Source: a virus
Length of the DNA: 64,000 nt
Virus record (IMG/VR): IMGVR_UViG_3300009314_000003
Coordinates: 64,001 to 128,000 of that record
Strand: one strand, 5' to 3'
In this document: positions 6,001 to 23,700 of the stretch, in pieces
Layout of the letters: each line of letters begins with the position of its first letter
Numbering within the stretch: position 1 is the first letter of the stretch
Made by a program: the position numbers and the translations under genes
Notes under the pieces: generated by a model
Databases searched by the model: none
What the model was told of the DNA's origin: nothing
What the model saw: the letters and a program-made list of their open reading frames with translations, nothing else

Positions 6001-9000
6001 GTCGACTTCAGCTTTGGTGACCTTATTGACCCCGACTACCTAACCAGGAAACACTATTACGACAGGCCCTATATTTCGTGTCTAACTCCAGGTACCTTAA
6101 TTATAGGCGATAGAATTACAGCCATAGATAAAATCAGGGAAGGCTCACATGTTTATACTAAGTCAGGAGAACTATCAAAGGTTACCGAGGTACATAGAAG
6201 AAATGTAAAAGAGCATATCACCAACATCCGTATTGCTAAACACTCAGAGCCGCTGAGACTTACCTGGAATCATAAAGTGATGGTGATGCAAACTGAAGTA
6301 TGTAGTCATAGACACAACAGCTCTAAGTCTAGACGAGTGTGTAGATTTGGGTTAACAAACAGTGATTGTGTGAAATGTACAAACAAACTTTATAAGAACT
6401 ATGAACTCGGGTGGGTACGAGCTAAGCATATAGAACCTGGGGACATAGTAGTTAAATCCATACCAGATACGTCAGAAATTGTCGAATCAATCAACATAAG
6501 TGATTTTGTGCTAGATTATCCAGTTTATGATGGTTCAGTATATTATGCGCCGAGAGCAAATAAGCTGTCAGCTAAACTAGCTTGGATTAAAGCTCATATC
6601 CCCCAACACAAAGATAATGAGAAGGGAGCACTAAAGAGATTATCTGCTGCTTACGATATACCACTTGGGTATTTATATAATCACTACTATACTTGTAATA
6701 CTAATCAGTGGGAACGTTGGACTATACCAGATGCTCTACCTCTCGATAAGAACTTATTTACCATACTAGGATACTACCTTGCCGAGGGCTCACTAACAAC
6801 CAAAGGGGTTAGTTTCGTCTTTCATGAGAAAGAGTTGAATACATATGTTAAGGAACTAATCAATGCTGCTTCTAATCTTGGATTCAAATCATCGTCGTGG
6901 CGATATAAAGAAGGCTCAAAGGCTATTGAATTAACCATATACAGCGTAATTCTCAGGAAGATGGTAGATAGCTTATGTGGTAGGGCCGAGCAAAAACACA
7001 TTCACTCGTTATTGATGAAGGCCCCGAGGGAGTCCAGAATTGCATTTGTTAGATCCTATATAAATGGAGACGGTTGTTATACGGCCGTAGATAGGGGTAT
7101 TTGGACGGTAACATATACGAGTGTTGTACCTTCAATTAGTTATCAGATCCAGCAAATGTTGTCAACACTTGGTGTGTTTGCTGGTATCCACAAAAGTGAA
7201 TGTCCCCCATATAAGATCAAAATAAATGATAAAGTAAATGGCATATCCTCTGGTGTATACTATATAGGTACGATAAATGGTGTTGAGTGTAGAAAGCTTC
7301 TCGACTTATTTGAGATGGACCATCCACAAACCAATCCACCAGCTCCGAATAGGTGGGGGTGGATGGATAATAAGTTTATTTATTTAGCTGTTAGAAATGT
7401 AGACCGTGAGTATTATGAGGGACCAGTGTATGATATTACAGTTGATGGTGAGCACAACTACCAAACATCATCTGCAATAGTTCATAACTCCGATATTCCA
7501 TTTTTGGAGGTACCTCTAGTAGGACCGGCCCTGGCGGCAACAGCCGGACAGGCATTCCGGGCCATTCACCCCATGACACTTGATCACCCTATGCACAAGG
7601 AGGAGGTGCAGAGGGCTTTGCAGGAGGGCGTGGCCTACAGTTGGCGAGGGGAGGAGGAGCCCGGCTTCGGTCCCAGGTACACTGGTTCCGTGTATACAGA
7701 TGAATCATACAGTCAGGGTCGTATTATGGGGACACTCGAGGGTCGCAGTCCTACGATCCGCAGCAATATGGATGTACGACAGATCATCTCCGAGCAGATT
7801 TACAGGGGGTGGATTGAGCCGGCAGGTCTGGCTGGCTTCTGCCTACCAGAGGGATCTGAGGTTATTACTTATGGGGGCCTTTATAAGAAGGTGGAGGATA
7901 TTAATCTCGGTGATAAACTTATCACCCATAGGGGCCACCCTGGTAAAGTCACTAGGGTATATAAGAGATTTGTGGATGAGGATATTATTGAGCTTAGTGT
8001 TTCCCACTATGCCGATGTCCCTGTCCAATTGACGGGGGAGCATCCAGTCTTGGTAGCAAAAACGAAGCCCTGCCTGAAAACCCACGACAAACAACATTGC
8101 CTACCACTTCATGGATCTTCTAGGTGTTATTGTTGTCCAAGAGAGTTCAACACCAATCTGGAGTGGGTTGTGGCGAAGGATATTAAGGAGGGTGATTTTG
8201 TTGTTCAACCATCCTCTATAGGCCTTCCACATAGCGGTCTTTTGGATTTAGGTAAGATGGATGAGGTGGTAAATTATAAAAGGGTAAATAACAACAGCCG
8301 GTGCTCAAGAGATAGGGATCACAAATACTTTGTTATCGAGCATGACAATATTAGGTGGTGGAATGGTTCCAAGAAACGATTTCCAAGATACTTGGAGCTA
8401 ACCAAGGATCTTGGGTTCTTCTTCGGTGTATATTTGGCCGAGGGTAGTTTGGATCCTTCTCCCAATAAAGTAAATAAACACAACAGGGGCCCGGAGAGAA
8501 TACAGTTCGCCCTTCATAAAGATGAAACAGATGCCATAGGAAGACGCCTTATTCGTATTGCTCGGGAGTACTTCAATATTGATCCATCTAAATGCCACAT
8601 TACACCCAACCACGGAAATGGCATAAGATTAAGACTCCAATCTCATGCTCAGCTGGCTATAACTATGCATCTCCTTCTAGGATCAAAGGAGAACAAATAT
8701 CTACACCCATCCCTATCCAACGGTCCTACTAAGTTTATTATTGGTTTATTGGAGGGGCTACTAATCGGAGACGGTTGCGCATTTAACAATGAGAATTTAA
8801 CCACTATAACCCCTACAATTAGCCTAACAACCACTGCTTATGGTATTGTCCAGGCAGTACGTTATGCAATGACTAGAATAGGGCTACATCCTCCAGTAAC
8901 AACCAGGGATGATAGTATAGTTGGGAGAAAAACAATAATTAATAGTCACGTAGCGATCCATAAGCTCCCATCATATAGACTGCGGTTATCTGGGTATACA

Positions 9001-12000
9001 GCTGTTAAGCTAAATCAGTTAATACACCTCTACTCTGGGGACGGGGATTTCAATTATAAGCCTATACGCAAGAAGGCCCCAGAGGTTTTTACCTTATATG
9101 ATTACACTTATTTAAAGGTTAAGAAAGTAGTTAGCAAGAGATATAAAGGTCGTGTATATGATTTCGAGATTGGTGGGGATCATAGCTTTATGACTACTGC
9201 TTGTATAGTTCATAACTGTACCAGTGCCCTGTTATGGGATTCTGATGAACCATTCGTAGATGAGCCAGTCTTTGCCCCGGCTAGTGAGATGGACTCAATG
9301 GGACGTGCTTACTGGGATATGAATATTGGTGATCCATTCTTAATTGGCGAGGGTATACGTAGAATGATCCCCCGGCCCAGAACAAGTTATGAGAAGGTTG
9401 ATGACTTACTCAGAAACGATATGCCAGGATGGCTTCCTGAGAACTTTCGGCGTGGCGACCCCTTTTGCATTTCTCCGGATACTATGGTAGAGGTTTATGA
9501 TGGTCTGATTCGGGCGGATGGGGTCAAGGAGGGTGATTTGATTCGTACTATTAGGGGCCGGTATTTCCCTATTAACAAGATTGCTGTAAGAGAGGTAGAT
9601 GAACCGGTATACAAGATTAAACTTGCTGGTGTGGAATATATAACCACCGCAACAGCTGAACATCCATTTAGAATTCATCCTGGAAAATGGGCACTAGCTG
9701 AGGATTTAAGGCCAGGTATGTATGTTGCTTACCCGCGGCTGAAAATAGATTTCCCCACAGAGTTAGAAATTCTAGGTAGAAGGTTTCAGCTTTCCGGCCC
9801 ACTGGCTTACATACTAGGTAATGTACTTAAGTATGGCCGAGTGGGTGATTTGTCCCTGGCTGTTACAGGTGTGCCTGAGGGGGACAGTTTTGCCCGGACG
9901 GTACAAAACATATTAGGAATTAAACTTAGCAAGCAGGGTCATAGCAGAAGTAAAATATTGCTTAGTCTCTTCAAGGATCTTAATCTAAGGCTCCCTCCCA
10001 TGTTTTATGGGGGCCCATTAAATATATTCGCCTCATTCTTAAAACCATTTACGGACGAGCCTCTACCGGGCCGCCGATTCATTACCCTAACCCTACCCAA
10101 TATGTCATTAGCATACCAGGTATGGAATTGTCTAATACAACATGACGTCATAGGACAAATCGATGGATGCCAGATAACAATACCAAGATGGATGCTTGTG
10201 GGTTTCAATAAGAATGCTGTTCTCATAGACTATTTATGTGGAGATAGGGAGATATTACGCTACGGAGATATAAGTACCATACCCTATAAGAAACACGAAA
10301 GGGGTAATGATGATCACCTCTATATAAGAGTGGATGAGGTTGAGGAAATACATTATAAAGGCCCGGTCTATGGTTTTGAGGTTGATAGGGATAATACTTT
10401 TTGTGTTGCGGGCTGTATAAGTCATAACACCCGTATTCCCAGGGGCGAGGCCTTACTCCCTGGGCCGGGGTACGAATCAATGTTTAACATGGTTCTTGAC
10501 TTCCCCACCGGGGCCAGTAGGCTTGGTTATTCAGCCTATGAACAGGCCTTGCATATGATTGGCCTTAAAGATCCCCTCTCCGAGGATGAGGAAGAGATCA
10601 TGAGTGAGGGAACTGCAATCCACAAAATGGTACAGGCTCAGCTGACAAAGGAGGGGGTACTAAAAAAGGTTGAGGCATATGTAACAGATCCCTACAACCG
10701 TGTTTCATCCTATGTTGACGGTGTTATGGGGTCCGCCTACGGCGACATTCCGCTGGAGATTAAGAGCATCTCCAGTAAAGGTTTTCAGCAACTTACCCGG
10801 CCGAAGCACAAACATAACATCCAGTTGAATGCTTACCTGCATATGATGAAGGCACGTGAGGGTAAAATCTTGTATGTTAATAGGACTGACCCATCTCAGA
10901 CTAAGGAATTTAAGGTCCGTTATGACCCACGTCTCTGGGCGCAGACCCTGGCTGAATTGGAGACTGCTAGGGAATATGCCAGTCAGTTCCTGGGTGAGGG
11001 ATATGGCTCCTCCACGAATGGCTACTCATATGTAGATAGAATGCAGGTACTCATGAATGCCGCCCCCTTTTCCACAGAGTATAGAGAGGTAGCTCAAATT
11101 GTAGGGCAGCAGTCTGAGCTCGGACTCTTATCTGATGAGCAGGAGAACCACCTGAAGAGAATGAGGCGTTATCACCAGAACATGATGAGGCGCCATGAGC
11201 TCTATCCACATCGTTTCAAATGGAATCAAATTCTCGATCCGGATCCACAGTACCAGCAACTTAATAGTAATGAACTAATCAAGGCAGCTGCTGAATATCC
11301 ACTCCCGGCCAGAGTAGCTGGTTCGATCTGGGAATACATGACCCATCTCCGTTCGCCACTTCATAGCAAACTTATTGGCCAATACTCCCCCGAGGAACAG
11401 TATGAGAGGACTGTGTTATATGGGAGTACACACAAGAATTGGGCGAATCCCATATCCGATTTCGCTGAGCCTTATATGCGCGGACTTAAGTCTGTAACTG
11501 ATCCGGTACAGGGGGCTCTCTCTTTTGGCCTGGGTGGGTCCCTCTTCGGCGGACTACCTGGGGCCATCCTGGCTGGTACGTTTGGAGCTGTGTATGGCTC
11601 GGCTCATGGTATATACCGAGCAGCTACTGACAGCCGCTATGTGCCGGAGAGATTTGAGGAGATGCAGGAAATGGAGGAGTATTTTGATCGCCTCAAGTAC
11701 TATCGCTCCCATACACTGTACAAAGCCACCGGAGACAGACGTTTCCTGGATGAGATGGGCCGAACTGCAGTTGGTTGGTCAGCAAAAACTCGTGGCGGGA
11801 GGATGACCAGACAACGGAGGGAGGATGATACCAAGCGGAGCCCGTACGCCAATTATGCCAGGCAGCCAACAATATATGATATTACAGGTAATTCATCCAT
11901 ATACACCAGGATGATGAATTGGATGGGCGGTGTATTACCACCAGAGGGCATGACCCAATCCTCTCGCTGGGCTAATCAGTCATACTCTACAGCTGGTGGC

Positions 12001-12669
12001 ACAAACAGGGGCCATATGTCCCCCTGGTCAGGTCAGGATACAGAACGTGACTTGGGATTCAGTGCTAATGAGGAAAACCTGCTTGATTATAGTGGCGCTT
12101 ATGCTGCTATGCCTTACTGGGACAGACCCTTCTTCAACGCCTTTCTAACAACTCCTTATGAAAAGAGGGAAGATATCCTTGGGACGGTGGACAGAACCTT
12201 GGCTAGTATGTTACAGGCAGCCTGGGGTCACGGTGAGCCGGATATTGAGGGTATTGGCAATTACTTTGAGGACCACTATCAACCGCCCGCCGGTCATCCT
12301 ATAATGCTTCCGGGGGCTGAGTTTGAGGACTACAAATATGAGACCATAGATCAGGCTGGCCTGGCTGCTCATGACTTTGGTCTTGGCTGGAGAGATCAGC
12401 TGCGAAGAATTCAATCAAGCCCCATAGATATTAAACCCGTTAACATTAATGCTGAAGGCCCATCGAAGAAAGGCCTATCCCTGGATGCCGGACAAATTAA
12501 GCAATCTATGCACCAGATACTTGCTAGACTAGGTTACCAATCCACCCCTGTCAAGGTGTCAACAACAGAGTCTCTTACCGATTCAGTCTCTCTACGTGTA
12601 AACATCAAGAGGGACTCTACCAATCAAATTATTAACCTACATACAGAGTCAATGCGTTATGGCGGATAA
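1..12669 (+). CDS. Giant virion/ejection (tape-measure-like) protein precursor with five inteins and a C-terminal RecB/Cas4-like nuclease domain; 5'-truncated by the window
   Basis: Frame of the 307..12669 ORF has no stop back to base 1 (GWGAHQRD...), so the true start is upstream. Five intein start/HN-end pairs; Gly-rich hydrophobic segments (VLPGAAMGFAMGGVPGAITGGIL; GALSFGLGGSLFGGLPGAILAGTFGAVYG); GTAIH...VDG...EIK...QLNAY nuclease motifs; lies upstream of baseplate genes. Confidence 0.75.
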   Translation, partial: GWGAHQRDAHQGPAWWNIPGHAVNFARWLPGFLTIDLGARLGFGLVGAAKRATSNAVFKSQPLRSLPEIITNARRYAKDNLDSPVVNLITSTLASVRAFSHFVGGKTDANNQTKRFAERSYKTISGYRRTGATANEYITENTRRLFKDYRRFKAKAKSDLKRALSTDYTRTGAELTRLFDPDAAKSSPIHIFKKGFGVEYGGMREMSRHLFERKMPLVARLSGLESLRMRHLKGIGQSEEWKRIFRVIYKGIQSAREFGDAGNQVRKLVKGGYSEGGKRSFDDLIVDSRLFFDPVTKEVRNLSGFTFKDIIGRSLHYASKRLTFNTPLGKIDLVSIFGGRAVASYGMPSIVRLEHGRVPTKAIQRLYGVEVYPTPTDPSAKQFTQVLAIKDRKSGYTVWADVYGGDASGGTGLEVVARNMSLVSSTDSTKMMSVYAMRESMWPPLDKNALNERFKGGGITPTIRKWLHNKFDLFGGGKFYPSVWELALHHMRGDSRVWTIFHPEGLPARVASGIYKMKDLAASGGQKASYQIQYLDAAYRKARTEASKLLTRDDILSRILRKAYEGDTIKLWGVKTEFKIKDIIDEKIVEDGLPEPLRLVREILKIDETASADSRLGRNLKQIIDELTDRMPEMGGFHKYVSEGGVGETATVKAKRFLAERAILREADTLGAARQLDTPHAGDTVKNIVDDILVAFDDLAKTNAITTKDLLKVKMGMQGIRWEHEVRNLGSLSGKSQITGRGIDKLFQAVGERGLMAKEYKDVESLFDFLRKAKMEDPELWDSYRRMTGKFKTTMMVDSQRHALEMMSDVFGESPYLLFEGGPMGWAKNVFSWGYDTFGRTMDLVGLGWDRGRFPKFMGKDSIAGLWTKRFALMGGVAAAYQTVDTVTDTTPIFAGSLAHDELVAVRHKRTGLVSLVKIGEFVEDGRADNNQFEAWTNHGGKIGWYDITQGIRHKRETTLVRVELESGADLFVTDNHSLFTGSESNLQLQAPEVGKHIVALESQYPSGAGISRVDISDLVTSLPEKLYVAVEDPSLNRGNYKLRADAEDIWGSNYVRWLRDRVTYHKAVYRTTYEAYTECPKKEFTKIRHFRSPVKIPSGWELTREFGYVLGMFAAEGCATKSNGSVYGVLFSAKDYGSLGHRYKGHIRSRLVSALKTVFPDAKISHSHKKIILHGYLYYWLFHDVFKMGHGASNKRLPDFALNGPEGFRRGLIDGYIDGDGYQKQTGDTIRPAGIGSTSRELVTQVYLLLRMEGCQVKLSSREPRQGQIIDGRVVNGNYRTYAITIRDLHTDLYDVSNSNHARTIRSNRVSSAIASMSACEEQPDFVYDISVAGAEKFIAGFGFLYAHNTALDEGTTVFLADQAVRARLFAGYVYDITGITDTMKYLEGLMPKSTQVLPGAAMGFAMGGVPGAITGGILNAWTQPVLKEGPLSFLSLLPPTAPFVSDMTKSFKELQDLYSGRELEAVRKGSGWPFGSVPIEGCLTERTEVLVADGGTTSIRAIKVGDCVIGPAGPVLVTATKDRYTTPSEQLYTIISRYNRSDEVEITGNHPVLVAEDPFRCSVVSNGTCSPRRNQKCHKCSHPYWQSYKLGWKRADDITSDDLLAIPRRRFNSSSEHVIRWVDFLGDDYKYVGGHVWVNSKLGTFGNEALRAIVDLVLDDLPHKDSEKQRRIEAIATQSGRMPRQVRQKMVDVRDRLRDGCPRDCIDYVDLGSLAEYLPLSYETGRFLGLYAAEGSVCDNGTISFAFHANEIEYHQFVESCMRRYFGSDTVTHVSGPQTAGTNQWAVQCFSTPIASILGRMFNRGASSKDIPARLFEANDDFLRGFLRGLFDGDGHHNLIKPRVEMRLASKDLINQVQLVLEHFGVVGFVSQVDNNGFDAYEILVSSSNARALLQLMEGVHESTFYDSLPGKGAWVCGDFIFTEVHKISSRSCPEGTHVYDIEVAEGESFRTVGLHLHNSRITAYSPNWYPMLKAQYKATPALYGSKLEQWAFKDLPFVDFSFGDLIDPDYLTRKHYYDRPYISCLTPGTLIIGDRITAIDKIREGSHVYTKSGELSKVTEVHRRNVKEHITNIRIAKHSEPLRLTWNHKVMVMQTEVCSHRHNSSKSRRVCRFGLTNSDCVKCTNKLYKNYELGWVRAKHIEPGDIVVKSIPDTSEIVESINISDFVLDYPVYDGSVYYAPRANKLSAKLAWIKAHIPQHKDNEKGALKRLSAAYDIPLGYLYNHYYTCNTNQWERWTIPDALPLDKNLFTILGYYLAEGSLTTKGVSFVFHEKELNTYVKELINAASNLGFKSSSWRYKEGSKAIELTIYSVILRKMVDSLCGRAEQKHIHSLLMKAPRESRIAFVRSYINGDGCYTAVDRGIWTVTYTSVVPSISYQIQQMLSTLGVFAGIHKSECPPYKIKINDKVNGISSGVYYIGTINGVECRKLLDLFEMDHPQTNPPAPNRWGWMDNKFIYLAVRNVDREYYEGPVYDITVDGEHNYQTSSAIVHNSDIPFLEVPLVGPALAATAGQAFRAIHPMTLDHPMHKEEVQRALQEGVAYSWRGEEEPGFGPRYTGSVYTDESYSQGRIMGTLEGRSPTIRSNMDVRQIISEQIYRGWIEPAGLAGFCLPEGSEVITYGGLYKKVEDINLGDKLITHRGHPGKVTRVYKRFVDEDIIELSVSHYADVPVQLTGEHPVLVAKTKPCLKTHDKQHCLPLHGSSRCYCCPREFNTNLEWVVAKDIKEGDFVVQPSSIGLPHSGLLDLGKMDEVVNYKRVNNNSRCSRDRDHKYFVIEHDNIRWWNGSKKRFPRYLELTKDLGFFFGVYLAEGSLDPSPNKVNKHNRGPERIQFALHKDETDAIGRRLIRIAREYFNIDPSKCHITPNHGNGIRLRLQSHAQLAITMHLLLGSKENKYLHPSLSNGPTKFIIGLLEGLLIGDGCAFNNENLTTITPTISLTTTAYGIVQAVRYAMTRIGLHPPVTTRDDSIVGRKTIINSHVAIHKLPSYRLRLSGYTAVKLNQLIHLYSGDGDFNYKPIRKKAPEVFTLYDYTYLKVKKVVSKRYKGRVYDFEIGGDHSFMTTACIVHNCTSALLWDSDEPFVDEPVFAPASEMDSMGRAYWDMNIGDPFLIGEGIRRMIPRPRTSYEKVDDLLRNDMPGWLPENFRRGDPFCISPDTMVEVYDGLIRADGVKEGDLIRTIRGRYFPINKIAVREVDEPVYKIKLAGVEYITTATAEHPFRIHPGKWALAEDLRPGMYVAYPRLKIDFPTELEILGRRFQLSGPLAYILGNVLKYGRVGDLSLAVTGVPEGDSFARTVQNILGIKLSKQGHSRSKILLSLFKDLNLRLPPMFYGGPLNIFASFLKPFTDEPLPGRRFITLTLPNMSLAYQVWNCLIQHDVIGQIDGCQITIPRWMLVGFNKNAVLIDYLCGDREILRYGDISTIPYKKHERGNDDHLYIRVDEVEEIHYKGPVYGFEVDRDNTFCVAGCISHNTRIPRGEALLPGPGYESMFNMVLDFPTGASRLGYSAYEQALHMIGLKDPLSEDEEEIMSEGTAIHKMVQAQLTKEGVLKKVEAYVTDPYNRVSSYVDGVMGSAYGDIPLEIKSISSKGFQQLTRPKHKHNIQLNAYLHMMKAREGKILYVNRTDPSQTKEFKVRYDPRLWAQTLAELETAREYASQFLGEGYGSSTNGYSYVDRMQVLMNAAPFSTEYREVAQIVGQQSELGLLSDEQENHLKRMRRYHQNMMRRHELYPHRFKWNQILDPDPQYQQLNSNELIKAAAEYPLPARVAGSIWEYMTHLRSPLHSKLIGQYSPEEQYERTVLYGSTHKNWANPISDFAEPYMRGLKSVTDPVQGALSFGLGGSLFGGLPGAILAGTFGAVYGSAHGIYRAATDSRYVPERFEEMQEMEEYFDRLKYYRSHTLYKATGDRRFLDEMGRTAVGWSAKTRGGRMTRQRREDDTKRSPYANYARQPTIYDITGNSSIYTRMMNWMGGVLPPEGMTQSSRWANQSYSTAGGTNRGHMSPWSGQDTERDLGFSANEENLLDYSGAYAAMPYWDRPFFNAFLTTPYEKREDILGTVDRTLASMLQAAWGHGEPDIEGIGNYFEDHYQPPAGHPIMLPGAEFEDYKYETIDQAGLAAHDFGLGWRDQLRRIQSSPIDIKPVNINAEGPSKKGLSLDAGQIKQSMHQILARLGYQSTPVKVSTTESLTDSVSLRVNIKRDSTNQIINLHTESMRYGG
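2689..4050 (+). mobile_element. Intein 1 (454 aa) with LAGLIDADG homing endonuclease, Ser-initiated
   Basis: FAG|SLAHDELV start, block B VTDNHSL, LGMFAAEG and LIDGYIDGDG, block F VYDISV, end YAHN|T. Confidence 0.93.
4450..5883 (+). mobile_element. Intein 2 (478 aa) with LAGLIDADG homing endonuclease
   Basis: IEG|CLTERTEV start, ITGNHPV, LGLYAAEG, FLRGLFDGDG, VYDIEV, end LHLHN|S. Confidence 0.95.
6079..7488 (+). mobile_element. Intein 3 (470 aa) with LAGLIDADG homing endonuclease
   Basis: YIS|CLTPGTLI start, LTWNHKV, LGYYLAEG, FVRSYINGDG, VYDITV, end IVHN|S. Confidence 0.95.
7840..9216 (+). mobile_element. Intein 4 (459 aa) with LAGLIDADG homing endonuclease
   Basis: AGF|CLPEGSEV start, LTGEHPV, FGVYLAEG, LLEGLLIGDG, VYDFEI, end IVHN|C. 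Confidence 0.95.
9466..10428 (+). mobile_element. Intein 5 (321 aa) with degenerate homing endonuclease
   Basis: DPF|CISPDTMV start, ATAEHPF, VYGFEV, end ISHN|T. LAGLIDADG positions decayed (LAYILGNVLKYG; FLKPFTDE). Confidence 0.92.
10500..10980 (+). other. RecB/Cas4-like PD-(D/E)xK nuclease domain within the giant protein
   Basis: GTAIH (10609), YVDG (D at 10717), LEIKS (E at 10756, K at 10762), HNIQLNAY (Q at 10822), ILYVN strand. No Fe-S cysteines. Boundaries approximate. Confidence 0.85.
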
Positions 12670-15600
12670 AGAGAAAGATACAAGAGACATACTGATATCC
12701 TGGTCCCTAATTCTCCCTACCCTCCTGGGGATTGTAAAGGCTAATAAGAATCTACCTCGCCTGGCAGAGCTACAGGATCTACTTATCAGATACCTCAGGG
12801 GTAGGGTATCTATGTCTGATGTTATTTCAGGCCGTAAGGCTATACGGGCCGTATTAACTAAGGACGTGGAGCTTGAGAAGTTTGTCGAAGCCCGTAAGCA
12901 AGCATGGCAGGATCATCTCACCGGCAAGACTGGAAAGGAATTTAGTTCAAACATATCTGCTAAGTTTGTTGAGGACATAGAGGGCGGAAAAGATTTAGTT
13001 GAGACCAAAATTGATATCCACACCAGGGATACTCTGGCAAGCAGAATCGATGTTGTTAGGGAAAATCTGGGGAAACGGATTGAGGATATCAAGAATAGAA
13101 CTGGTATCAAGACCTCTGTATTGAATAGGAAGGACGCTATCAAGGCAAGGTCCACCTTTGACTTATTTGGAGCGCAGGTATGGTATGATATGTTTGGCAG
13201 TACAGGTCCTATATCTGGGGGTTCTGCCTGGGATATGATGGATGCACATGCGTGGTTCAGGGCCTATAAAACTTCAGGGCATATATCATTTACCGGGAAC
13301 ACACAGGACCTGGAGGTGAATAGTATTAGAAGTCGACTTTCGTCGTTTGATACATCACCCGAGAGTGCTGATGTAGACATACTTAAGAAATATGTTACTG
13401 AGCTGGAGAGAATTGAAAAGCAATTTGAGGCTCCTCAGCTAAAACCCATAAGTGGCAGCAGAGTCAAAGATCCCATATGGACCTCAATTATTGGCAACAG
13501 AGTGGCAACCTCGAATGGTAGGATTACTACTATTGGCGGAAAGGAGGTTATGGGGCTTGGTGCTATTGAGAGTAGTATTCAACAGAGCTTACTTGGCGAG
13601 TTGGAGCAGAACCTCGCACCACCAAAGCAGGGATTCCAAACCAGATTTGAGGATATATTCTATAACTATTCCCCCCAGACACAAAGATTTTATGATGTTG
13701 TATTATCACCTCAGTCACAAGCTAAGGAAGTTGCTAAGGTATTCAGATCGATGTCTGAACACCTGGGGAGATTGAAACGTGGTGGGGCAAATACTGTGGC
13801 TGCTAAGCTTGCGAAGGATGAGAGCACACAACGGGCCCTGACAAAGGTTATAAACAACATGGAGCTGCGACTGGAGGTTACTGAGGAGCACGCCTTAGGA
13901 CGTCCCTTCAAGTACTTTAAGTTCGTACTCGATTCCTCAGGGGCCGAGGTAGATAGGAGTATAAAGGTAGGGGATAAGACACTAGACAAACTGGTTGGTC
14001 GTATGGAGTTCTACTTCCCCACCGTCCAGGAAGGTTATTTAATTACACGCCCCGGCGTTCATCCTCTAACATCTCCCGCCACATGGCCAGCAGGGGCTAA
14101 GGGGATATCCCAGTTCATGTCTATACCAAGTACCGTAGCCTTGGATATAACTCAGCACATGCCAAAGTTCTATAATGAAATGATGGATGCCATGCTCAGA
14201 GGTGATAGGGCCCAAAACTATCTTATGAGACGCATTAATCATGCCATGGAACTGGCATCTCCTGCTAAAGGCACCGTAGGAGATATCTTTCGTATAGCCG
14301 CCGCCAAACATGTCGAGGGTAGAATATATGCTGGGTTGGAAGATTCCAGGATGTATATAAACGCCCTAAAGGCAAAGTCGGCTGTGGAAAACGTTAAAAG
14401 GATGCACACAACAGGTAAATCGCGTATCCTGGTATTTGATACTGAGTATGGTAAGGAAGGCCTTCTCTCCAGATCTTTGGGGGTACAGCGTATGGCACGG
14501 GACCCGGGCGTAAAGGTCTGGTCCATTGGCTATCAGATCCTTGATTATGAGGCCTCTTCAGGGAGGATGACGGGTATTATGGGTAAACCAGGCAAGCTTA
14601 TGATAAAGCCCAAAAACTGGAATAGTATCAAGAGTAATGTGGAGCAGTGGCTACGCAGGCAATTGCCCGATGAGAAAGCTGTGGAGAAGATAATTAATAA
14701 GATTCAGGAGGGTGAAGGACTACGGGAAGCCCTAAAGAAGCTGGTTGATGATATAAGGACCTATGGAAAGAACGATATATATGTCTCTGGTTTTGCTAGT
14801 ATGGATGCGGATTTGAAGAACCTGGCCCAGATGATTGATGCTGAATTCAGTAAGAAGGAGGCCTTAGAATGGAAGACGCAACTGAGTTATCTCCTTGATG
14901 TAGATATGGAACACGGGGCCCGTAGACAAATTGATGTTATGCGTCTTTACCAGGGCTTTTCCTTTGCCAGACCTGAGACAGCTATATCAAATGCCGCAGT
15001 ATTTGAAAGCCTGTATGGTATTGATTCAACGCGCTTCGGTGAGCTATTGACAATGGTAAAGGGGAAGAAGCAGGTGGAGCTAAAGGTCGCAGCGAAGAAG
15101 TTGTGGAGCAGCAGTTCAGAAATAGCCAAGGCCGAGCACGCATTCAAGACCTTTGAGAATATGAAGCTTGGGGTGACGGAGTATCATTCGCACATGGCCG
15201 AGTTTGACTGGACAATACACGCCATGAGTATGAAGAGGTTGTTTGGCCGCGTCATGGGCCCCAATACACTCGATCGTGAGGCTCTGGAACGCCTGTCAAT
15301 TGCTGCTGAGATACAACGTAACAGGTTAGCCGGTTACAAATCACCCTGGCACTACGTAACAGATACCATTCTGAATCCTCTCTTCGCCTCTACTTACTCA
15401 GTAAGTTCGTTTGATGGGGCCGGTACAAGTTATTCAGATCCCAATATGGCCCAACTCTCTCTCCATGCTATGCCTAAGGCACAGGCCGCGCGGATGATTG
15501 GGAGTTTACTGAACCCGGATCGTGTTTTACCTGGTGGTTTACTACATAATCTCCTCCGCCAGAAGTATCAATCCTTCTCAGGGCATATCCTATCTGTTAA

Positions 15601-18600
15601 TACAGGCCTCATGTTCAAGGATATGCACGCAGACATGACCCAGGTCATGAAGGAGGCAGACCTGCCTTTCCTAGGTATTGGTGAAGTAATGGGTACTCCC
15701 CACACCACCGCAATGCGTCAGCACATAATTAATACCTATATGGGCAGCTACGGCAATTATGCAAGGAACAATCTTAGAGTAACCCTAGGAGACAGAGCTG
15801 CGGAGGCGGCCATGAAAAAGACTACGATGCACATGACCGATAGTATCATAGGTCTTGTGGCTTACCTACCGGATAGGCATGGTTACACACACGATGCCGC
15901 CCTAAGAGTTAATAAGGCCATATTCGAATCAGTTAATGTACTTGGTCATGGAGACCGACCAGGCATCCGGAATATAGAATTGGAGATACCAATTCCTGAT
16001 GAATGGAAGAACAAGAGTGGTATGGCCATAAAAGATGTCCTGAAGAGACAAGGTTTTCACCCTGCCATACAAAGGCTTGCACGTGAATATGGAGGAAGAG
16101 TCTCCGGTATAGTTGACAAGAGGTGGGAATATTTCAAGATGGATGTGCTGGGTGAGGGGGATATAAGTGACCGCATCATCCACCCAGGTGATGAACTAAT
16201 TAAGGAGGTACAGGGTAGACGTGAATATCTCCGGTTGACTGATGTAGGTAGGAAATATGATAAGAAGTACCCTGCCGCTGTGGTTGGTATGAAGGTTGAT
16301 CTCGAACAAAATAATATTATAATTACCGTCAGTGAACACTCTCGCCCCATGCTGACCACCAAAATATCAACCGGATCTACTAAAACACTGTGGGGAACTG
16401 CCAGCTCAAAGGTGGAGAATGTAAATACAAAGGGCCGTGCTGTGGGTGGTGGTATGCTCTTGTTGGAGGGGTCAATAAAATCCCTAAAGGACTATGGTGC
16501 TATTGTCATGGCACAAATCGGACGTGTATTGAGGCATGTGTACAGCAGTAACCTCGGGCCTCTTGGGCAGGAGGGAGCTATTAAAAAGGCTTTGACACCT
16601 CTTCTCGGCAAGGACCTGGTTGAGGATATAACATTCCAGGATAACAGGCTGTTGACTACAGGAGGTAGGTCTATAGTCATCAGAAAACCTGAGCTGGGAA
16701 ACAAGATACAGACCCATCTCTCCCGTCACAGTGCCTCCGTACCCAAATTATATGACATGGTGGAGGCAGCTGGTATAACTATCGGTGAGGTGCGTAAGTT
16801 GTTCAATATCATAACGAGTAATATACTGGAGAGTGAAACAGAGAGGGAGAAGCTCTTTAATCAATTAGGCAGGGACCACCTGAACTCTCTGGAGAGAGAG
16901 AAGGACAGGTTACTAGGTAAAATAGCAACAGCCGGTGAGGGGCGAAGTAAGAAAGAGATTGAGAGGAGTAAGAACATGGTCTCGAGACAAATTAGGAGTT
17001 GGAAGGCCTTTGTCGAGAGACAGGATGAATCTGGGACAGCCCTATTTGATTTTATGGCTACCAAACCTTTTGCGGATAGTGCTGTACTAACCTCACATAA
17101 TGCCATAATTGCTCTCGAGAGCTTACATATCGTAGAATCTGGGCCCATCGACTTTATGAGGTCCTTTGACAGGATGGAGAGCTTCTACGGTTTTCCACTG
17201 GGCCCACAGAAATTAAGTCCGGCGGATGCTAATGTCCTGGAGGATGCTGTCCGGCGTGCCGCTGGAGAGGATATAGCAGCACTGGAAATAATGGTCGAAA
17301 TGGACAAGATGCGCGGCTTTGCCTATATAAGTAAAAAGACAGGCAGACCTATAATCAGGGAATCCATACAAGCTGTTAACCTGGCTATGAAATTTCTTAG
17401 AGAAGGCAGGCCGGCCCTGGCAGCGGCCCTTGGTGAGGAGGGGACTACCAAGATATTGAATTATGAGGCTGTGCAACAGCTAGCAGAGAAATCTGGCTTC
17501 ATAGAGCTTATGTCCACCAAGGATATGGAATCTGTTCTGACAAAGCTGGATGCTATTACCGATGAGAGACACGTAGGACGAAAGGTGGCTGACGCCCTGG
17601 TGGATATGGGCATCCTCGGCGCGAAGGAGGGTATGAGTGAGCACGACCTGATGAAACTATTAAATGACTTTGGTATCTCGGGACCAGATGTAGAATACTT
17701 TACAGACGTGATAAACCAGGACAGGATTCACCTTGTGGACAAGACTCTCCTGAATGAGATCAAAATGTTCCGCACTACAAAGGGTAGTATGAAGGACATA
17801 ACCTTGCTGGAAGTTCAAAATACCAGCAGCGCAATCAAGGCTTTGAAAGCTCGTGTGGGAAAGAGTAGGGCAGATGTAAAGAGAGTAGAGAAGCTTGAGG
17901 GATGGCTGAAGAATACAGGTCGGACTAGCTTGTATAAGGAAGGCTTCACCTTTGATCTTAGGGAACATCTATTTGGCTATCTCATGGACAACCCGAATAT
18001 GGCGAAGGGAAAGACAGATATACTTCTACGGCAGGTATCTAACTACCTAGAGCGTATGGCGAAGAGGGGATCCCTGCGGGTCGGTGCAGATTTCATTCCC
18101 ATACCAAAGGCTGCCGTACTGATGTCTATCCTCCAATCCTCTAACCTAAGTAACCTCCTGGGAGGAAAAAATGCCTTCCTTGGAGGGGCCGCAGTGTCTA
18201 CCCTGGAAGTAATGAGAGATGTGATGCAGTTCAATCAAGCAACCAAAGATATTGCTGGTCTTGGTGATGGTGCAAAAAAATCTGTGGAGGAGTTAATTGA
18301 GAACTGGACGTCTAAGGTACAACAGCTGGAGCATTCCATAGGAGTGCTGCAGGAACGGGTAATTGGGCCCTCCGTATCTCAGCTCATCAAGAAGGCCTTT
18401 ACCCTATATGCCCCCACCTCATACGGCAAGTTGTTACACCCCCTCCATCTGCTTCCTACACTCCAGAATAAGTTGTACGGAGCTCCTGGCGGCCTGGAGA
18501 AGGCCCTGAGTAACTTTCCTAAGTCCGAAGTTATCAAGATAAATAATAAGGTGTTTGCAGAGATAGATATTAAGAAGGCCTTTGCTAATCTAGTTGATGC

Positions 18601-20563
18601 ACCCTCCGAGGGGGGTTCCCAGTTGTTTGGACCTATGGACGGCGGTCTGCAGAGAATAAGGTTCAAAGGCCTGGGAGTCAATGAAGCGATCATGCCGATG
18701 CATGTGGCTAAGGAGCAGGTAATTAGAATAGCTAAGCAGCACGGCGGTTCAATACCTAAACCCAAACTGGTGAGGGATTGGCTTATGGGCAAAACTGCCT
18801 CCCCCTTCCCAATCCACCGCGGTAAGCAGCCAATTATATATAGTGGTACCAGCTTGGCCAAGGTGTATGTAGTACCAGATGTTCTGTGGGAACTACATGG
18901 AGGGCTTGATATAGATGTCAAGAAACAGTCAAAGATGGGCAACTTACATGGCCTTGTCTATATAGATCCCGTGGCGGCTATATCAGACCTGGCTGACTGG
19001 GATGGTGATTTAGGGATGATGGTCTTCGCCGGCAATACCCCAAGTACAAGGGCCATACAAGCTGCGACCAATCGGACTGAGGAACTTGTGAAATATCTAA
19101 CCTGGAAGCAGAAGGTATCTGGTGATGCCCCGCTGGATAGGGTAACTGATGCCGTTACTGTCGACCTTGATCCGGAGAACTTTAAGAAGACCGGCAGGGT
19201 AACTTATATGGTACCTAATAAGAATTACAAGAAGGTAATTGATACAACTGCTACGTTGGACATTTTCCCTGTGAAAGACTTCTACGATCGCTCCAATCAT
19301 GATTTCACTGTTCTCAAGACATCTCTGATTGATGAATATATTACCAACGAATTGGTGACCGGCAGGCTTGGAAATATGCACAAGTACCTACAGTCACAGG
19401 TCCTTGGCAAACCATCTGTCTGGGAGCAGTTGTCACATGAACTCTCCGACAATAAGAAATTGGCTAAGTTTCTTAAGGAGGAAGGCATCTCTGCCTTAGA
19501 GGTACAGGAGGCTGTGCACTATATCCTTAATAAGGAGGCCAAATCGGGTATGAAATTTGCCACTGCTGTTGAGAAGTGGTCAGGAAACCTGGTTGAGGTA
19601 ATGACTGTCCAGAAGATCCTTGGGGGTGAACAGATTAGTGGATCCTCCGCAAGATTGAAGAAGGATCTTATCAATAAAATACTCAGCAGCAATCAAAGTC
19701 TGCTGAGTGGCTCAATTGTAGATGAATCTCAGGGTGTTGTGAATAGGCTGGCATTAATGCCGGAAAAGCCGGATGCATCCCTGATGCAATTTATCTCGCC
19801 CGACAAGATAAGCAGGTTAAGCGACGCAGATGTAAGGGATATGGCTAGGGTATCCAGGAAACTGACAGTGGATGTTGGCCTTATAATACTTGCCTCGCAA
19901 AAGGCAGCTGAATTCTTGAATAAACCGGATGCCTTCGGTGTTACCTATATAAAAAAGGCCCTGGACTCCTCCACAGCTGCAATACAGGGTAACATAGGAT
20001 TCCACTTCTCCCTTATGGCGGGGCTGGGGGCCTCGGCAAAGTGGGAGGACTTCGCCTCAGGTATATTTGGTAAGGACAATCTTGCCTACAGCCTAAGTGA
20101 ATTTCAGCGGGGTATGCCGATGTCCGGCCGCCGCACAATATTAGAATCCATTAAGACAGGTATACGTGAGCATGTAGGTGAAGAGGGTTACAGATCCCTA
20201 GGTAAGAGTGTGAAATGGGCAGGCCTCGCAGCCTTAGCCCTAATGGCCCTTGATCCTAATGCTAATAGTAAACTCCTAGGACCTACCCCCGGTGAGGGAG
20301 GTGAAAAATATGATCTCCCAACCATCCAATCCATCTTGGATGTGTATAAGCAGAAGAAGCCAAGGCTGCTCGAGCCCAGTGCTACTATGATGGATAAGTT
20401 GGCTACACTGACAGGGCTGCCAATAGAGTCCTTGCCACAACTAAAACAAGGGAGGAATCTTCCTCCACGACCGAGTATACGCTACAATAATAGAAGGAAG
20501 AAATACAGCCGTCATAATATCGGACAATACATCCGTGATGGAAACGGAGTACTACTGACCTAA
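12659..20563 (+). CDS. Putative single-chain two-barrel (beta+beta'-like) RNA polymerase with N-terminal DEDDh 3'-5' exonuclease domain, likely virion-associated
   Basis: Exonuclease motifs ILVFDTE (14438), [20 protein letters not shown] (15191). Beta-like [16 protein letters not shown] (15857-15902) and [14 protein letters not shown] (16343-16384). Beta'-like [13 protein letters not shown], RGKQP and [15 protein letters not shown] (18965-19009). Overlaps the end of the upstream gene. Confidence 0.78.
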   Translation: [2634 protein letters not shown]

Positions 20564-20565
20564 TT

Positions 20566-20751
20566 ATGCATATTACTATAGAGGTTGACCTAAATAATAT
20601 TCCCTATGATGTTGATGTCACTGAGATTATTGGCTATCTACAATCATATCTTCAAGAGACATACCAGGTTGATGTGAATATGATGGTGGATGACTACGAC
20701 TTCGTCAATAAGATTGACCTGGGCCGGCAGATGAAGGCTATGAAGCGTTAA
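20566..20751 (+). CDS. Small hypothetical protein (61 aa)
   Basis: Fills the gap exactly; starts 2 nt after the upstream stop and has a TAATG overlap with the next gene. Confidence 0.65.
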   Translation: MHITIEVDLNNIPYDVDVTEIIGYLQSYLQETYQVDVNMMVDDYDFVNKIDLGRQMKAMKR

Positions 20752-23700
20752 TGTCTATTTACAACACCACTGACAGAATCAACTATCTCTCAACCGTTGA
20801 GCGCATCTCCAAGGAAAACGGCATTGATCCTGACTTTGTAGATGCCATGATAGGTGCAGAGTGCTCCTGGGACCTCAATTTGGCTGGCGGGACAGGCGCA
20901 CTTGGATTAATGCAACTTATTTCGGACAGCAGTATTGTGGAGATTATACAATGGCGGGAATCTCAATTCCATGGACAAGATCTGAAGGAATTAACAACCA
21001 AAGCAGGAGAAGATCCAGAAATCAATATTCGGATTGGTATTGACTATTTGAGGTATATTGACCTTCACCCCAGCACTTATGTCAGACCGAATGCTGCTCT
21101 CCTCGCCGCATCATATAATCAGGGTTGGCCCACTGTGGGGGACGCCGGCTGGACGGTCCCTACAGATGCTCAGGTCTACGTAAATAATATTCAAAAGCAG
21201 ATGCGTGTCTTGAAGAATAACAGTAGCTTCCTGCTGGCTGAGTATTATCCCATCGAGCTTGAGGACACCTCCGCCGACGATCTCGAGAAGAAGAAGCTAT
21301 ACTACAAGATGAGCGACCCCAAGGAGTTGGGCCTCCTGGTTATTGGTGACCTGCAATTCACCGTCCCACCCACAGCCATTAACTTCTCCTCAGACAGTCA
21401 GGCCATCTCTATTCCCACCCTTCGCTCCTCAGGTGATCCAGTCATTACCAGCAACACAGCAGTACCAAGGGCCCAGGTGGTTCTTTACTTCACAGGTGTG
21501 AATGCAATTAATAGGGAACTGAGACCCCTTTACGCTATGTTCCATAAGGCACCCTTCACCACGGTGCAGAACAACACCCTCCACAAACTTATGGTAGGTA
21601 AGAAGCAGGAGCAGTTGATGAATACATCTACTAAAGATTTTTCCCCTATCCCTATTATGCTGGAAGGAATTACCCTACACACCGTTCCAGGATTTCCTGG
21701 TACGATACAGGCCAATGTCTCCCTGGCATTTATAAATCACTTCCCCCATGTATCGGAGATGAAGTTCTTCAAAAAGACAGAAGACGCCAAGGCCCAAGCC
21801 AGGTATATGACTTACCGAAGTAGTAAGGCCTACAACACCATCAACCTTAGGGAGGATGGTAACCTCACATACATTACAGCGGAGGGAACCCCTGGTACCG
21901 CAGGTAAACCAGCGGGTGGTAAAACTACTCTCTATCCCGGGGGTAGTTGGCCCTTCATACGTCACTACAGGGGTCTCCTAAGGGAGTTTAAGGAGTCATA
22001 CTTTGCTGATATGTCTAATAGGGTAGAACCTTGGTGTGAATATAATGCAACTTCTGCGCAAGGTATAAAAATCCAATACAATAGCATCTTAGTCTACGAC
22101 ACAATGGAGCAAAACCTACTACGCAACCTGCGAGGAATAAGTGACATGTTGCACCGCCTCAAGGTAATGAGGGCATTGGCCACCAAGGACATTGCCATTA
22201 ACGCGGCCACGGGAGGTGGGCCTAAGAGCGTACTTATTGATGGTAAAGAAGTAGACGTTCAACCGACTGATATTGGAATGTTTACCTTTGAAGGTAGAGG
22301 AGCAGAAATATTAGAAAAGTATTTTAGTTTCTGGGAGCATTATATCGATGCCTTCGCGGGTATAAGATATACACTTAATGAGCTGAGGACAGAGATTACA
22401 CAGGCTTATAACCAATTTAAAACGATAACGGAGGAAAAGGCAGAAGGCATCGAGGTTGATTTCACCTTCCTAAGTGATGACGACCAACTCACAAATAACA
22501 GTGAGGTGATTAAGAAGAGCCTGTTACAATATGTTTATCTCCTACGTAAGAGAAAAGAACTCGCCAGTGAGACGGGAATGGATGAGGAGAAAAGTAAGCT
22601 AAATATTGCAATAGATAAGTATCATAAACTCTATGAAGCTATGGGACAGCACTTTAATGATTCCGTTGAGGACTGGGCAAAGGAGGAAAAGGTTAATCCT
22701 AAGATAGTCCATCCCATCGAATTTACTCTGGGGTGGGATGATACACTTAGTCCCAAATACAATGAGAATGCACTAAAGGAGGCACTAGAGAAACAGAAGG
22801 ATACGGCGGTTCAGAAGGCTAAACTACGATATAATACTGTCGTCAACTCTATAGGTGTTTCGTATCAGAATAATATTACTCCTATTCCTATTCTCGCCTT
22901 CGAGAACCCAACTTTCCAACATATGGGAATATCTAACGCAGTGGTCACTATCAATCTCAAGACAAAAGACGAAGATCTCCTTGCCCGTTTGACTGATGTA
23001 AGGCAAAGTATAGCTCATATCTCACGTGCTGTTGCGTCCGGCGGCAATAACGACCTGGCTGATCTGGAGCTATCAAAAATCACCATCACTGATGGCCTAT
23101 TGAACTCCCTCGGCCTGAACGAATTTGCCCTCAGGGACCTGGATGTACGGAGTATCTCCGGCTCTCCGGGATGGTACGAGATTACTTTGGAGCTTGTACA
23201 AAATGAAATGGATCTTACTAAGTTTGAACAGTTAAGCAGTATTCCCTCCTACCAACTTCCGAGGGATGCAGTGGCAACCCTCTTTCCATCCAAGGATTTT
23301 GAGCCGTATGACTTTTTTGACTCGCTTAAGGAGGAATATAATAAGAAAAACAAAGCACTTCGTGAGCGTATAATGGATTACAGATTCTATACGTCAGAAG
23401 TATGCAGGAGGGTGATAAAGAAACATTATGCAAGGCCTACAGCGAAAGACGCATTTGGGGAATATGTACTTGGCTCGGAGTATGGAGTAAGTGTCGAGCT
23501 AATTAGAGAACTGCCGGGGGGTAACCCATATTACGAATTCATTATCGAGGTGTATAATATCGATACCGGGGTGAAAGATACCTCCAGGACAAAATTCTAC
23601 AGGAGTATGGTTGGGCCATTACTCAGACGAGCAACCATTATCTGCCAAATGGCCCGTGCCTTTGAGAATGAAAAGAATTACGAACTAGGTGTCGGGTCCT

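Follow-up and report, generated by a model that had tools for sequence, protein, structure and literature searches.

Genomic locus of P0001

The stretch of DNA analysed here (the window, 64,000 nucleotides in length) corresponds to bases 64001-128000 of a single IMG/VR viral contig of 147,988 bp (IMGVR_UViG_3300009314_000003), which has a CheckV completeness of ~77%, lacks terminal repeats and is matched in seawater and marine metagenomes. The gene of interest within it is P0001, an intact open reading frame (ORF) at window positions 12659-20563 on the + strand, which runs from an ATG start over 2,634 residues with no internal stops. The encoded protein has three full-length collinear homologues, contains no cysteine and is a candidate exonuclease/two-barrel RNA polymerase (RNAP). 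Since P0001 combines the metal-binding signature of cellular RNAP with one of 3'-5' exonucleases, the phage is likely to deliver a transcription enzyme of its own by injection, and the description of P0001 as a tail-module, probably injected exonuclease/two-barrel RNAP is favoured here, if only modestly.

P0001 lies in the tail module of a myovirus, between two other giant genes. On its 5' side, an ORF of 4,392 residues (window 1-12669, genome 63491-76669, + strand, with its start 509 nucleotides before the window) ends in a stop codon that overlaps the start of P0001 by 11 nucleotides. It is this upstream giant, and not P0001, that occupies the tape-measure slot, defined as the first large gene after the tail chaperones. 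On the 3' side, an ORF of 61 residues (20566-20751, + strand) starts 3 nucleotides past the P0001 stop and abuts the next giant, a protein of 2,378 residues (20751-27887, + strand) with an N-terminal SLT lytic transglycosylase domain and matches to tail and endolysin PHROGs, which is followed by baseplate genes (PHROG baseplate wedge match). The start and stop codons of P0001 and its neighbours overlap or abut. This is the setting that had been described in an earlier, sequence-only reading of the locus, and the place of the gene in the tail module is kept in all relatives.

Family distribution and conservation

An exhaustive HMMER search over 1.84 billion cluster representatives, with residues 1000-2199 of P0001 as the query, returned only three relatives besides a truncated copy of P0001 itself (E 1e-24 to 3e-33). 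These are P0003 (2,636 residues), P0004 (2,634 residues) and P0005 (2,695 residues), which share about 25-29% identity with P0001 and align with it collinearly over the full length, where the identity is 25-26%. Their contigs show a common gene order, formed by an intein-bearing giant, the P0001 homologue, an ORF of 61-66 residues, an ORF of ~2,440 residues, small ORFs and a baseplate J gene. Further homologous-protein searches with P0001 yielded only the truncated copy, and tblastn with P0001 and P0003 against 50,697 phage records gave no match, even at E<=1. Scans of contigs revealed one locus in IMG/VR, near-identical to P0004, and no family locus in the JGI metagenomes. The whole P0001 protein and its sub-regions have no matches in Pfam, PHROGs or PDB sequences, and Pfam and NCBIfam run on all four members produced noise only. 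The P0001 family is rare, old and syntenic, with four known lineages.

In the alignment of the four members, 307 of the 2,634 columns (11.7%) are invariant. Ten catalytic-type residues from two enzyme signatures are all found among them, while 88% of the columns vary. The residues conserved in 4/4 members include A2112, D2113, D2115 and D2117, as well as K1235, G1239 and T1241, from the RNAP-type motifs, and F593-D594-T595-E596, D718, H845, A847 and D850 from the exonuclease signature. The most conserved parts of P0001 are, nevertheless, its N-terminal 40 and C-terminal 135 residues. The N-terminal segment (12659-12778, + strand, residues 1-40; 16 of 40 columns invariant) contains the motif KDTRDILIS... 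and, according to its hydropathy, a hydrophobic stretch at residues 11-29, and is a candidate assembly or ejection signal. The C-terminal block (20156-20560, + strand, residues 2500-2634), the most conserved of all, carries the segments GK..KWAGLAALALMALDPNAN, GGE.YD.P and P.RP.IRY, with 13-19 of 40 columns invariant, and represents a candidate tail/hub anchor or ejection module.

The β'-like catalytic block

The sequence-only reading had recognised in P0001 the landmarks of both large RNAP subunits, so that, unlike in cellular RNAP, the β and β' equivalents would share one chain. The peptides quoted in its favour do stand where they had been placed: GLVAYLPDRHGYTHDAALRVN at residues 1065-1085 (D1079), a 21-residue peptide at 1222-1242 (K1235, K1242), a 13-residue peptide at 2005-2017, RGKQP at 2054-2058 and IDPVAAISDLADWDGDLG at 2102-2119 (D2113, D2115 and D2117). 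The strings from E. coli with which they had been compared, at positions 800 and 1052 of β and 424 and 450 of β', are also genuine. As for the interpretation, the β' part of the proposal gained motif-level support from a reciprocal match of alignments and from a language-model search, whereas the β part did not reach significance.

The putative β'-like double-psi barrel (18521-19108, + strand, residues 1955-2150) is delimited by these comparisons and by a series of motifs, which include F-K-G-L-G-x-N at 2002-2008, (R/K)-x-P at 2056-2058 and IDP at 2102-2104. Within it lies the candidate Mg2+-binding catalytic triad A2112-D2113-W-D2115-G-D2117 (18992-19009, + strand), whose alanine and three aspartates are invariant in 4/4 members. 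The motif reads ADWDGD (2112-2117) in P0001, ADFDGD in P0003 and P0004, and ADFDRD in P0005, so that conservation in the homologues extends to A-D-x-D-x-D in its IDP-x7-AD context in every member, two of them with the canonical form. A second block, of the type NRxPxxH, reads NREP..H, NRDP..H and GRQP..H in the three relatives and GKQP..Y in P0001. In P0003 and P0004, the order NR(E/D)P-x3-H followed by IDP-x7-ADFDGD parallels the β' pattern NRAPTLH ... HPL-x6-NADFDGD. The same likeness is apparent at residues 340-500 of E. coli RpoC, where NRxPxxH is followed by (I/L)xP-x7-NADFDGD, the family consensus being NRxP..H and IDP-x7-ADFDGD. The family differs from β' in the spacing between RxP and DxDGD (59 residues versus 34) and in the lack of zinc-binding cysteines (it has no cysteine at all), and the rest of β' is undetectable in it. 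Taken alone, D-x-D-G-D is weak, because 0.04 occurrences are expected in a protein of the composition of P0001. Further downstream, a conserved helix-like block (19319-19438, + strand, residues 2221-2260), with D2225, Y2227, T2229, G2235, G2238, K2242 and Q2247 and 10 of 40 columns invariant, is possibly the equivalent of the bridge helix.

The specificity of the resemblance was assessed with hhalign, using β and β' alignments for which the E. coli sequences were combined with those of 56 proteobacterial rpoBC loci. When windows of the family were scanned, only residues 2001-2301 matched β' 300-520 (scores of 29.3 and 28.7, with the other 23 windows at 10.5-16.9). When windows of the subunits were scanned, only β' 331-661 matched family residues 1960-2160 (30.2 and 30.9, with the other β and β' windows at <=22). 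The match between the family and β' is, hence, reciprocal (P~0.001 in the window scans), and the resulting 151-column alignment pairs both the RxP..H and the IDP..ADFDGD blocks. In addition, an ESM-atlas language-model search with residues ~1950-2300 placed, as its top three named clusters, phage proteins with Pfam RdRP PF05183, which is the QDE-1/YonO two-barrel family (score 0.89). This match is to be read as a lead and not as proof, because the score lies just below the 0.9 line of the tool. Taken as a whole, a β'-type barrel in P0001 is supported at the level of its motifs.

The DEDDh exonuclease signature

The N-terminal half of P0001 contains a signature of the DEDDh type of 3'-5' exonucleases (14411-15238, + strand, residues ~585-860). 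Its motifs appear in the order ExoI, ExoII and ExoIII: FDTE, with D594 and E596, forms ExoI; D718, which in the relatives stands within a GQN..AD-type block, represents ExoII; and H845-x4-D850, within an H-x-A-x2-D motif, represents ExoIII. The five residues are all invariant. The spacings of 122 and 127 residues between the motifs are longer in P0001 than in DnaQ. The region has no Pfam RNase_T match and no PDB profile match, and a targeted search of the contig with PF00929 gave nothing, so the assignment of residues ~585-860 to an exonuclease, a putative one, is drawn from the five catalytic-type residues and their invariance. Judged by their sequences, the β'-type catalytic block and the exonuclease signature of P0001 are real and conserved features.

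Among polymerases, it is the DNA polymerases that typically carry a fused DEDDh exonuclease of the proofreading type, and the archaeal DNA polymerase PolD is, like the RNA-dependent QDE-1, a two-barrel enzyme (PMC7281927, PMC9508822). P0001 could, according to this, be a two-barrel polymerase with a proofreading job other than early transcription, such as PolD-like DNA synthesis, priming or RNA-templated synthesis, whether packaged or not. The 148-kb contig yielded no DNA polymerase of families A, B or C, an absence that is uninformative because the contig is ~77% complete and such a gene may lie in the missing part. The presence of the gene in the tail operon of every relative speaks against such a role, as do the lack of cysteine and the conserved termini, which point to an ejected protein, and the fact that the tail- or virion-encoded two-barrel precedents are transcriptases. 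This alternative is, for these reasons, considered improbable, and a transcriptase remains the preferred assignment for the polymerase part.

Comparison with known systems

Experiments have demonstrated virion-delivered two-barrel RNAPs in podoviruses of the crAss-like group and in P23-45-like siphoviruses; phiKZ-like jumbo myoviruses package multisubunit RNA polymerases. The closest precedent of P0001 in function and location is gp96 of the Thermus phage P23-45, a virion two-barrel RNAP, fused to the tape measure, that came to light because of a DFDGD motif; it travels with the DNA, transcribes the pre-early genes and is paired with a second RNAP, gp64, which is not part of the virion (Chaban et al. 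2024, PMC10770324). The phage of P0001 likewise has a second, unverified protein with a DFDFD motif, of 1,041 residues, encoded in its early arm. Both proteins are giant, encoded in the tail module and provided with a DFDGD-type motif, and show almost no other likeness to known RNAPs. The best local hhalign alignment between the P0001 family and gp96 sets RxPxxH on RNPVMGH and ADFDGD on VDFDGD, with a probability <1%. P23-45 is, however, a siphovirus, in which the first 1,200 residues of the tape-measure protein make up the RNAP, whereas P0001 belongs to a myovirus, has an ORF of its own that follows the giant of the tape-measure slot, bears an N-terminal DEDDh signature and has a more β'-like catalytic block.

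A second precedent is gp66 of the crAss-like phage phi14:2, a virion-packaged single-chain two-barrel RNAP that is ejected to transcribe early genes. It resembles P0001 in being a giant structural-module protein (2,180 residues), annotated as 'structural protein' by mass spectrometry, in which the Asp triad is the only obvious RNAP feature. It differs in belonging to a podovirus, in having DFDID instead of ADFDGD and in lacking an exonuclease.

In terms of gene order, a counterpart is found in the cultured Bacillus phage 0305phi8-36 (locus L176:14786-28236 for gp145 and gp146), where sheath, tube, two chaperones, gp145 (1,930 residues), gp146 (2,537 residues), the hub gp147 with peptidoglycan-degrading domains and gpV-/gpJ-like genes follow one another as around P0001. 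The annotation assigns gp145 and gp146 to the virion on the basis of mass spectrometry and labels gp146 'hypothetical tape measure'; both are free of cysteine, as P0001 is. gp146 also recalls P0001 through DIETTG as ExoI, GQNVADAD as ExoII and, in its C-terminal segment, GK..KW.AG. The similarity of the P0001 family to gp146 is not significant (P 0.02-0.14), and that between the two exonuclease regions is weak (P=0.024). HMMER searches with the family profile against the whole genomes of P23-45, phi14:2 and 0305phi8-36 gave no match. Iyer et al. 2021 (PMC7824862) report YonO-like single-chain RNAPs in 0305phi8-36, in a protein other than gp146, and in phage c-st, and the sections consulted describe no tail-module exonuclease fusion. 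A literature search likewise found no description of a tail-module exonuclease/two-barrel RNAP fusion.

Cysteine absence and probable delivery

No cysteine occurs among the 10,599 residues of P0001, P0003, P0004 and P0005. In eleven other large proteins of the same phage, cysteine averages 0.78%, so that ~20 cysteines would be expected in each family member. Together with the strongly conserved termini, this fits a protein that would cross the tail and the oxidising periplasm in an unfolded state. Absence of cysteine was observed in P0001, P0003-P0005 and gp145/gp146 of 0305phi8-36 (1,930-2,695 residues), and the adjoining proteins have a normal cysteine content; it might characterise tail-delivered proteins in general.

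The context of P0001 among tail-cargo genes is strong. We infer that P0001 is packaged in the virion, given that its gene lies in the tail operon of all relatives, that it contains no cysteine, and that the proteins at the corresponding positions in 0305phi8-36 are annotated as virion components. The upstream giant adds to this picture a match to Cas4/RecB/RecE-like PD-(D/E)XK nucleases at residues 3694-3831 (window ~10570-10983). Because this Cas4/RecB-like nuclease stands beside P0001 and the lysin giant, the trio looks like a cargo-enzyme cassette composed of a nuclease, an exonuclease/polymerase and a lysin. No paralogy was found among the three neighbouring giants.

The putative β-like half and the weight of the polymerase assignment

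The putative β-like half (15476-16558, + strand, residues 940-1300) comprises LPGGL at 957-961, LPD at 1070-1072, K1235..G1239..T1241 and an SR..G..LE-like stretch at 1275-1290, with invariant residues among them. In the relatives, K-x3/4-G-x-T-x2-KG is followed by SR-x2-LG-x2-LE-x-Q, which recalls E. coli β, including its PSRMNIGQILE segment. P0003 reads K-x4-G-x-T-G-N-K-G, while in P0001 the second lysine is shifted to K1242, K1235 being invariant.

Several observations weigh against the assignment of P0001 as a polymerase, and the β-like half is the first of them. hhalign places K1235 on the lysine of the GDK motif of β and S1275 on PSRMNIGQ with P=0.22, which is not significant, and in the scans the predicted register is equalled by another one, in which PGERLFGE falls on PGDKMAGR. 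Owing to this P value and to the rival register, the β-like half is treated as unproven, the barrel being suggested by motif resemblance. In the β'-like half, most of the signal comes from ~20-40 residues around ADFDGD. Without this block, the NRxP..H region keeps the top rank in either direction, at P 0.06-0.11, so the β' likeness claimed for P0001 holds with the block and is no longer significant after its removal. A targeted search of the phage contig with PF05183 gave nothing, and the profiles of Pfam, PHROG, NCBIfam and PDB are all silent on the family. Structure prediction with AlphaFold2 was applied to residues 950-2149 of P0001, with the 4-sequence alignment, and to the more canonical β'-like region of P0003, and returned mean predicted local distance difference test (pLDDT) values of 37.5 and 48.4, respectively, with ~30 in the DxDGD loop of the latter. 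Foldseek and VIA-align searches with the P0003 model gave noise only and are, given the low confidence of the model, uninformative on the fold; the fold searches gave nothing because both models are poor. Finally, hhalign against a 57-sequence profile of the crAss gp66 family revealed no relation to the P0001 family. Since homology was tested and not found, P0001 falls, as far as these comparisons go, outside the families of gp96 and gp66, and its likeness to them is functional at most. The two-barrel fold, the β-like half and any activity of P0001 are unproven.

The most sceptical reading of these data would attribute the motifs to chance and see in P0001 a giant tail protein with a purely structural function, comparable to a tape-measure-like ruler. 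The lack of a profile match in any library agrees with it, as do the long helical stretches between residues 1270 and 1950 of the AlphaFold model and the many chances that a long protein offers for short motifs (0.04 expected for DxDGD). A purely structural role is, nonetheless, very improbable, given that the ten catalytic-type residues are invariant while 88% of the columns vary, and that hhalign singles out the β' barrel in a reciprocal match. Moreover, no tail tape-measure family of Pfam or PHROG matches P0001, and it is the gene of the upstream giant that comes immediately behind the tail chaperones.

A less extreme alternative, unlikely in our estimation but to be taken seriously, regards P0001 as an ejected or internal tail giant of the tape-measure/ejectosome set, with the DEDDh exonuclease as its only enzyme and ADxDGD as a metal or structural site or the relic of a decayed polymerase. 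The positional counterpart gp146 of 0305phi8-36 is relevant here, as it has the exonuclease motifs and no DxDxD; therefore, an exonuclease-bearing tail giant needs no polymerase. The conservation of the termini above that of the catalytic blocks, the lack of statistical support for the β-like barrel and the ADFDRD sequence of P0005 point in the same direction. P0001 itself has lost several β- and β'-like residues that its relatives retain, and it is the most deviant of the four members at nearly every catalytic-adjacent motif: W replaces F, K replaces R, Y replaces H, WG replaces KG (with the lysine three residues earlier) and, in the SR..G..LE motif, R and E have become L and M. A mere site or relic is harder to reconcile with the invariance of the three aspartates and the preceding alanine at 25% identity, with the agreement of the flanking IDP and RxP..H blocks with β' in order and approximate spacing, and with the ESM features that lead to RdRP clusters. 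The injected exonuclease/two-barrel RNAP is thus retained as the favoured description.

Other features of the contig

The upstream giant is interrupted by five intein splicing domains with LAGLIDADG endonucleases, and its relatives have one or more inteins in the corresponding gene. Inteins are also present in the ribonucleotide reductase and the terminase of the phage, whose contig further codes for a RecD2 helicase and a clamp-loader-like ATPase. The inteins of the ribonucleotide reductase (genome 139783-143952, - strand) carry homing endonucleases, and the large terminase lies at genome 36145-38427 (+ strand). The phage is unusually rich in self-splicing elements. The 61-residue ORF between P0001 and the lysin giant, which has an equivalent of 61-66 residues in the relatives, is acidic and could be a chaperone or adaptor for the giants. 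Elsewhere in the window, an ORF of 1,557 residues (window 42991-47664) contains five or six tandem coding repeats of ~300 bp (window 45390-46970, genome 109390-110970), with repeated 14-mers spaced ~300 bp apart. Short contigs at least 99% identical to window 11000-22000 are present in two seawater metatranscriptomic libraries, and also in DNA libraries from these studies; they do not prove transcription of the P0001 region, since DNA might have been carried over.

The 12-mer TGACATAACTAA has five exact and six one-mismatch copies on the contig, against ~0.65 expected. They lie at genome positions 13338, 14602, 17927, 39734, 44280, 53938, 62261, 68341, 91332 and 125255 (+ strand) and 127695 (- strand), four of them inside the window (4341, 27332 and 61255 on the + strand, 63695 on the - strand). 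All copies are co-oriented with the local genes, most are intergenic, and some precede the tail-tube block and the chaperone/giant block. The element is a candidate phage promoter that may be used by a phage-encoded polymerase. In the early arm, an ORF of 1,041 residues (genome 6747-9872, - strand) holds an NSDFDFD motif. This protein has no matches in Pfam, PHROG or PDB, and hhalign found nothing between it and β or β'; its DFDFD region aligns weakly with the ADWDGD region of P0001 (E 0.12).

Proposed function and implications

In the mechanism proposed here, P0001 would be expressed late, with the tail genes of the marine myovirus, would be built into the tail or particle via its conserved termini, and would leave through the tail with the DNA. 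Once in the host cytoplasm, a two-barrel core, formed by the β-like half (~940-1300) and the β'-like half (~1955-2260) and provided with D2113, D2115 and D2117, which would bind Mg2+, and with K1235, could transcribe the first phage genes, possibly including the gene of the early-arm protein with the NSDFDFD motif. The N-terminal DEDDh exonuclease (~585-860) might serve the polymerase by trimming the 3' ends of transcripts or DNA, or might be directed against nucleic acid of the host. The data establish the sequence features of P0001 and its synteny; from these we infer the two-barrel fold of the core, its catalytic activity and template, the packaging and ejection of the protein and the part played by the exonuclease.

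A bolder version, which we regard as doubtful, holds that the exonuclease and the two-barrel core act jointly as a tail-injected proofreading polymerase. P0001 would then be the first two-barrel RNAP with a built-in DnaQ-type 3'-5' nuclease for editing or end processing, delivered beside the Cas4/RecB-like nuclease giant and the lysin giant in a three-protein cassette that would replace a simple tape measure in an undescribed class of myoviruses. Joint action might consist, for example, in the resection of the entering DNA end to yield a single-stranded template, or in a substitute for Gre-type transcript cleavage.

If the favoured description of P0001 is true, the strategy of virion-delivered two-barrel RNAPs would extend to a contractile-tailed morphotype, with a new architecture in which a single-chain enzyme, encoded separately in the tail operon, carries a proofreading-type exonuclease. 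The 'tape-measure slot' of large myoviruses could then house cargo enzymes and not a ruler alone. Because searches of Pfam, PHROG, NCBIfam and PDB do not reveal the family, such polymerases may be systematically missed when the dependence of phages on host transcription is judged. The total absence of cysteine would provide a simple, testable marker for proteins that must pass through the tail.

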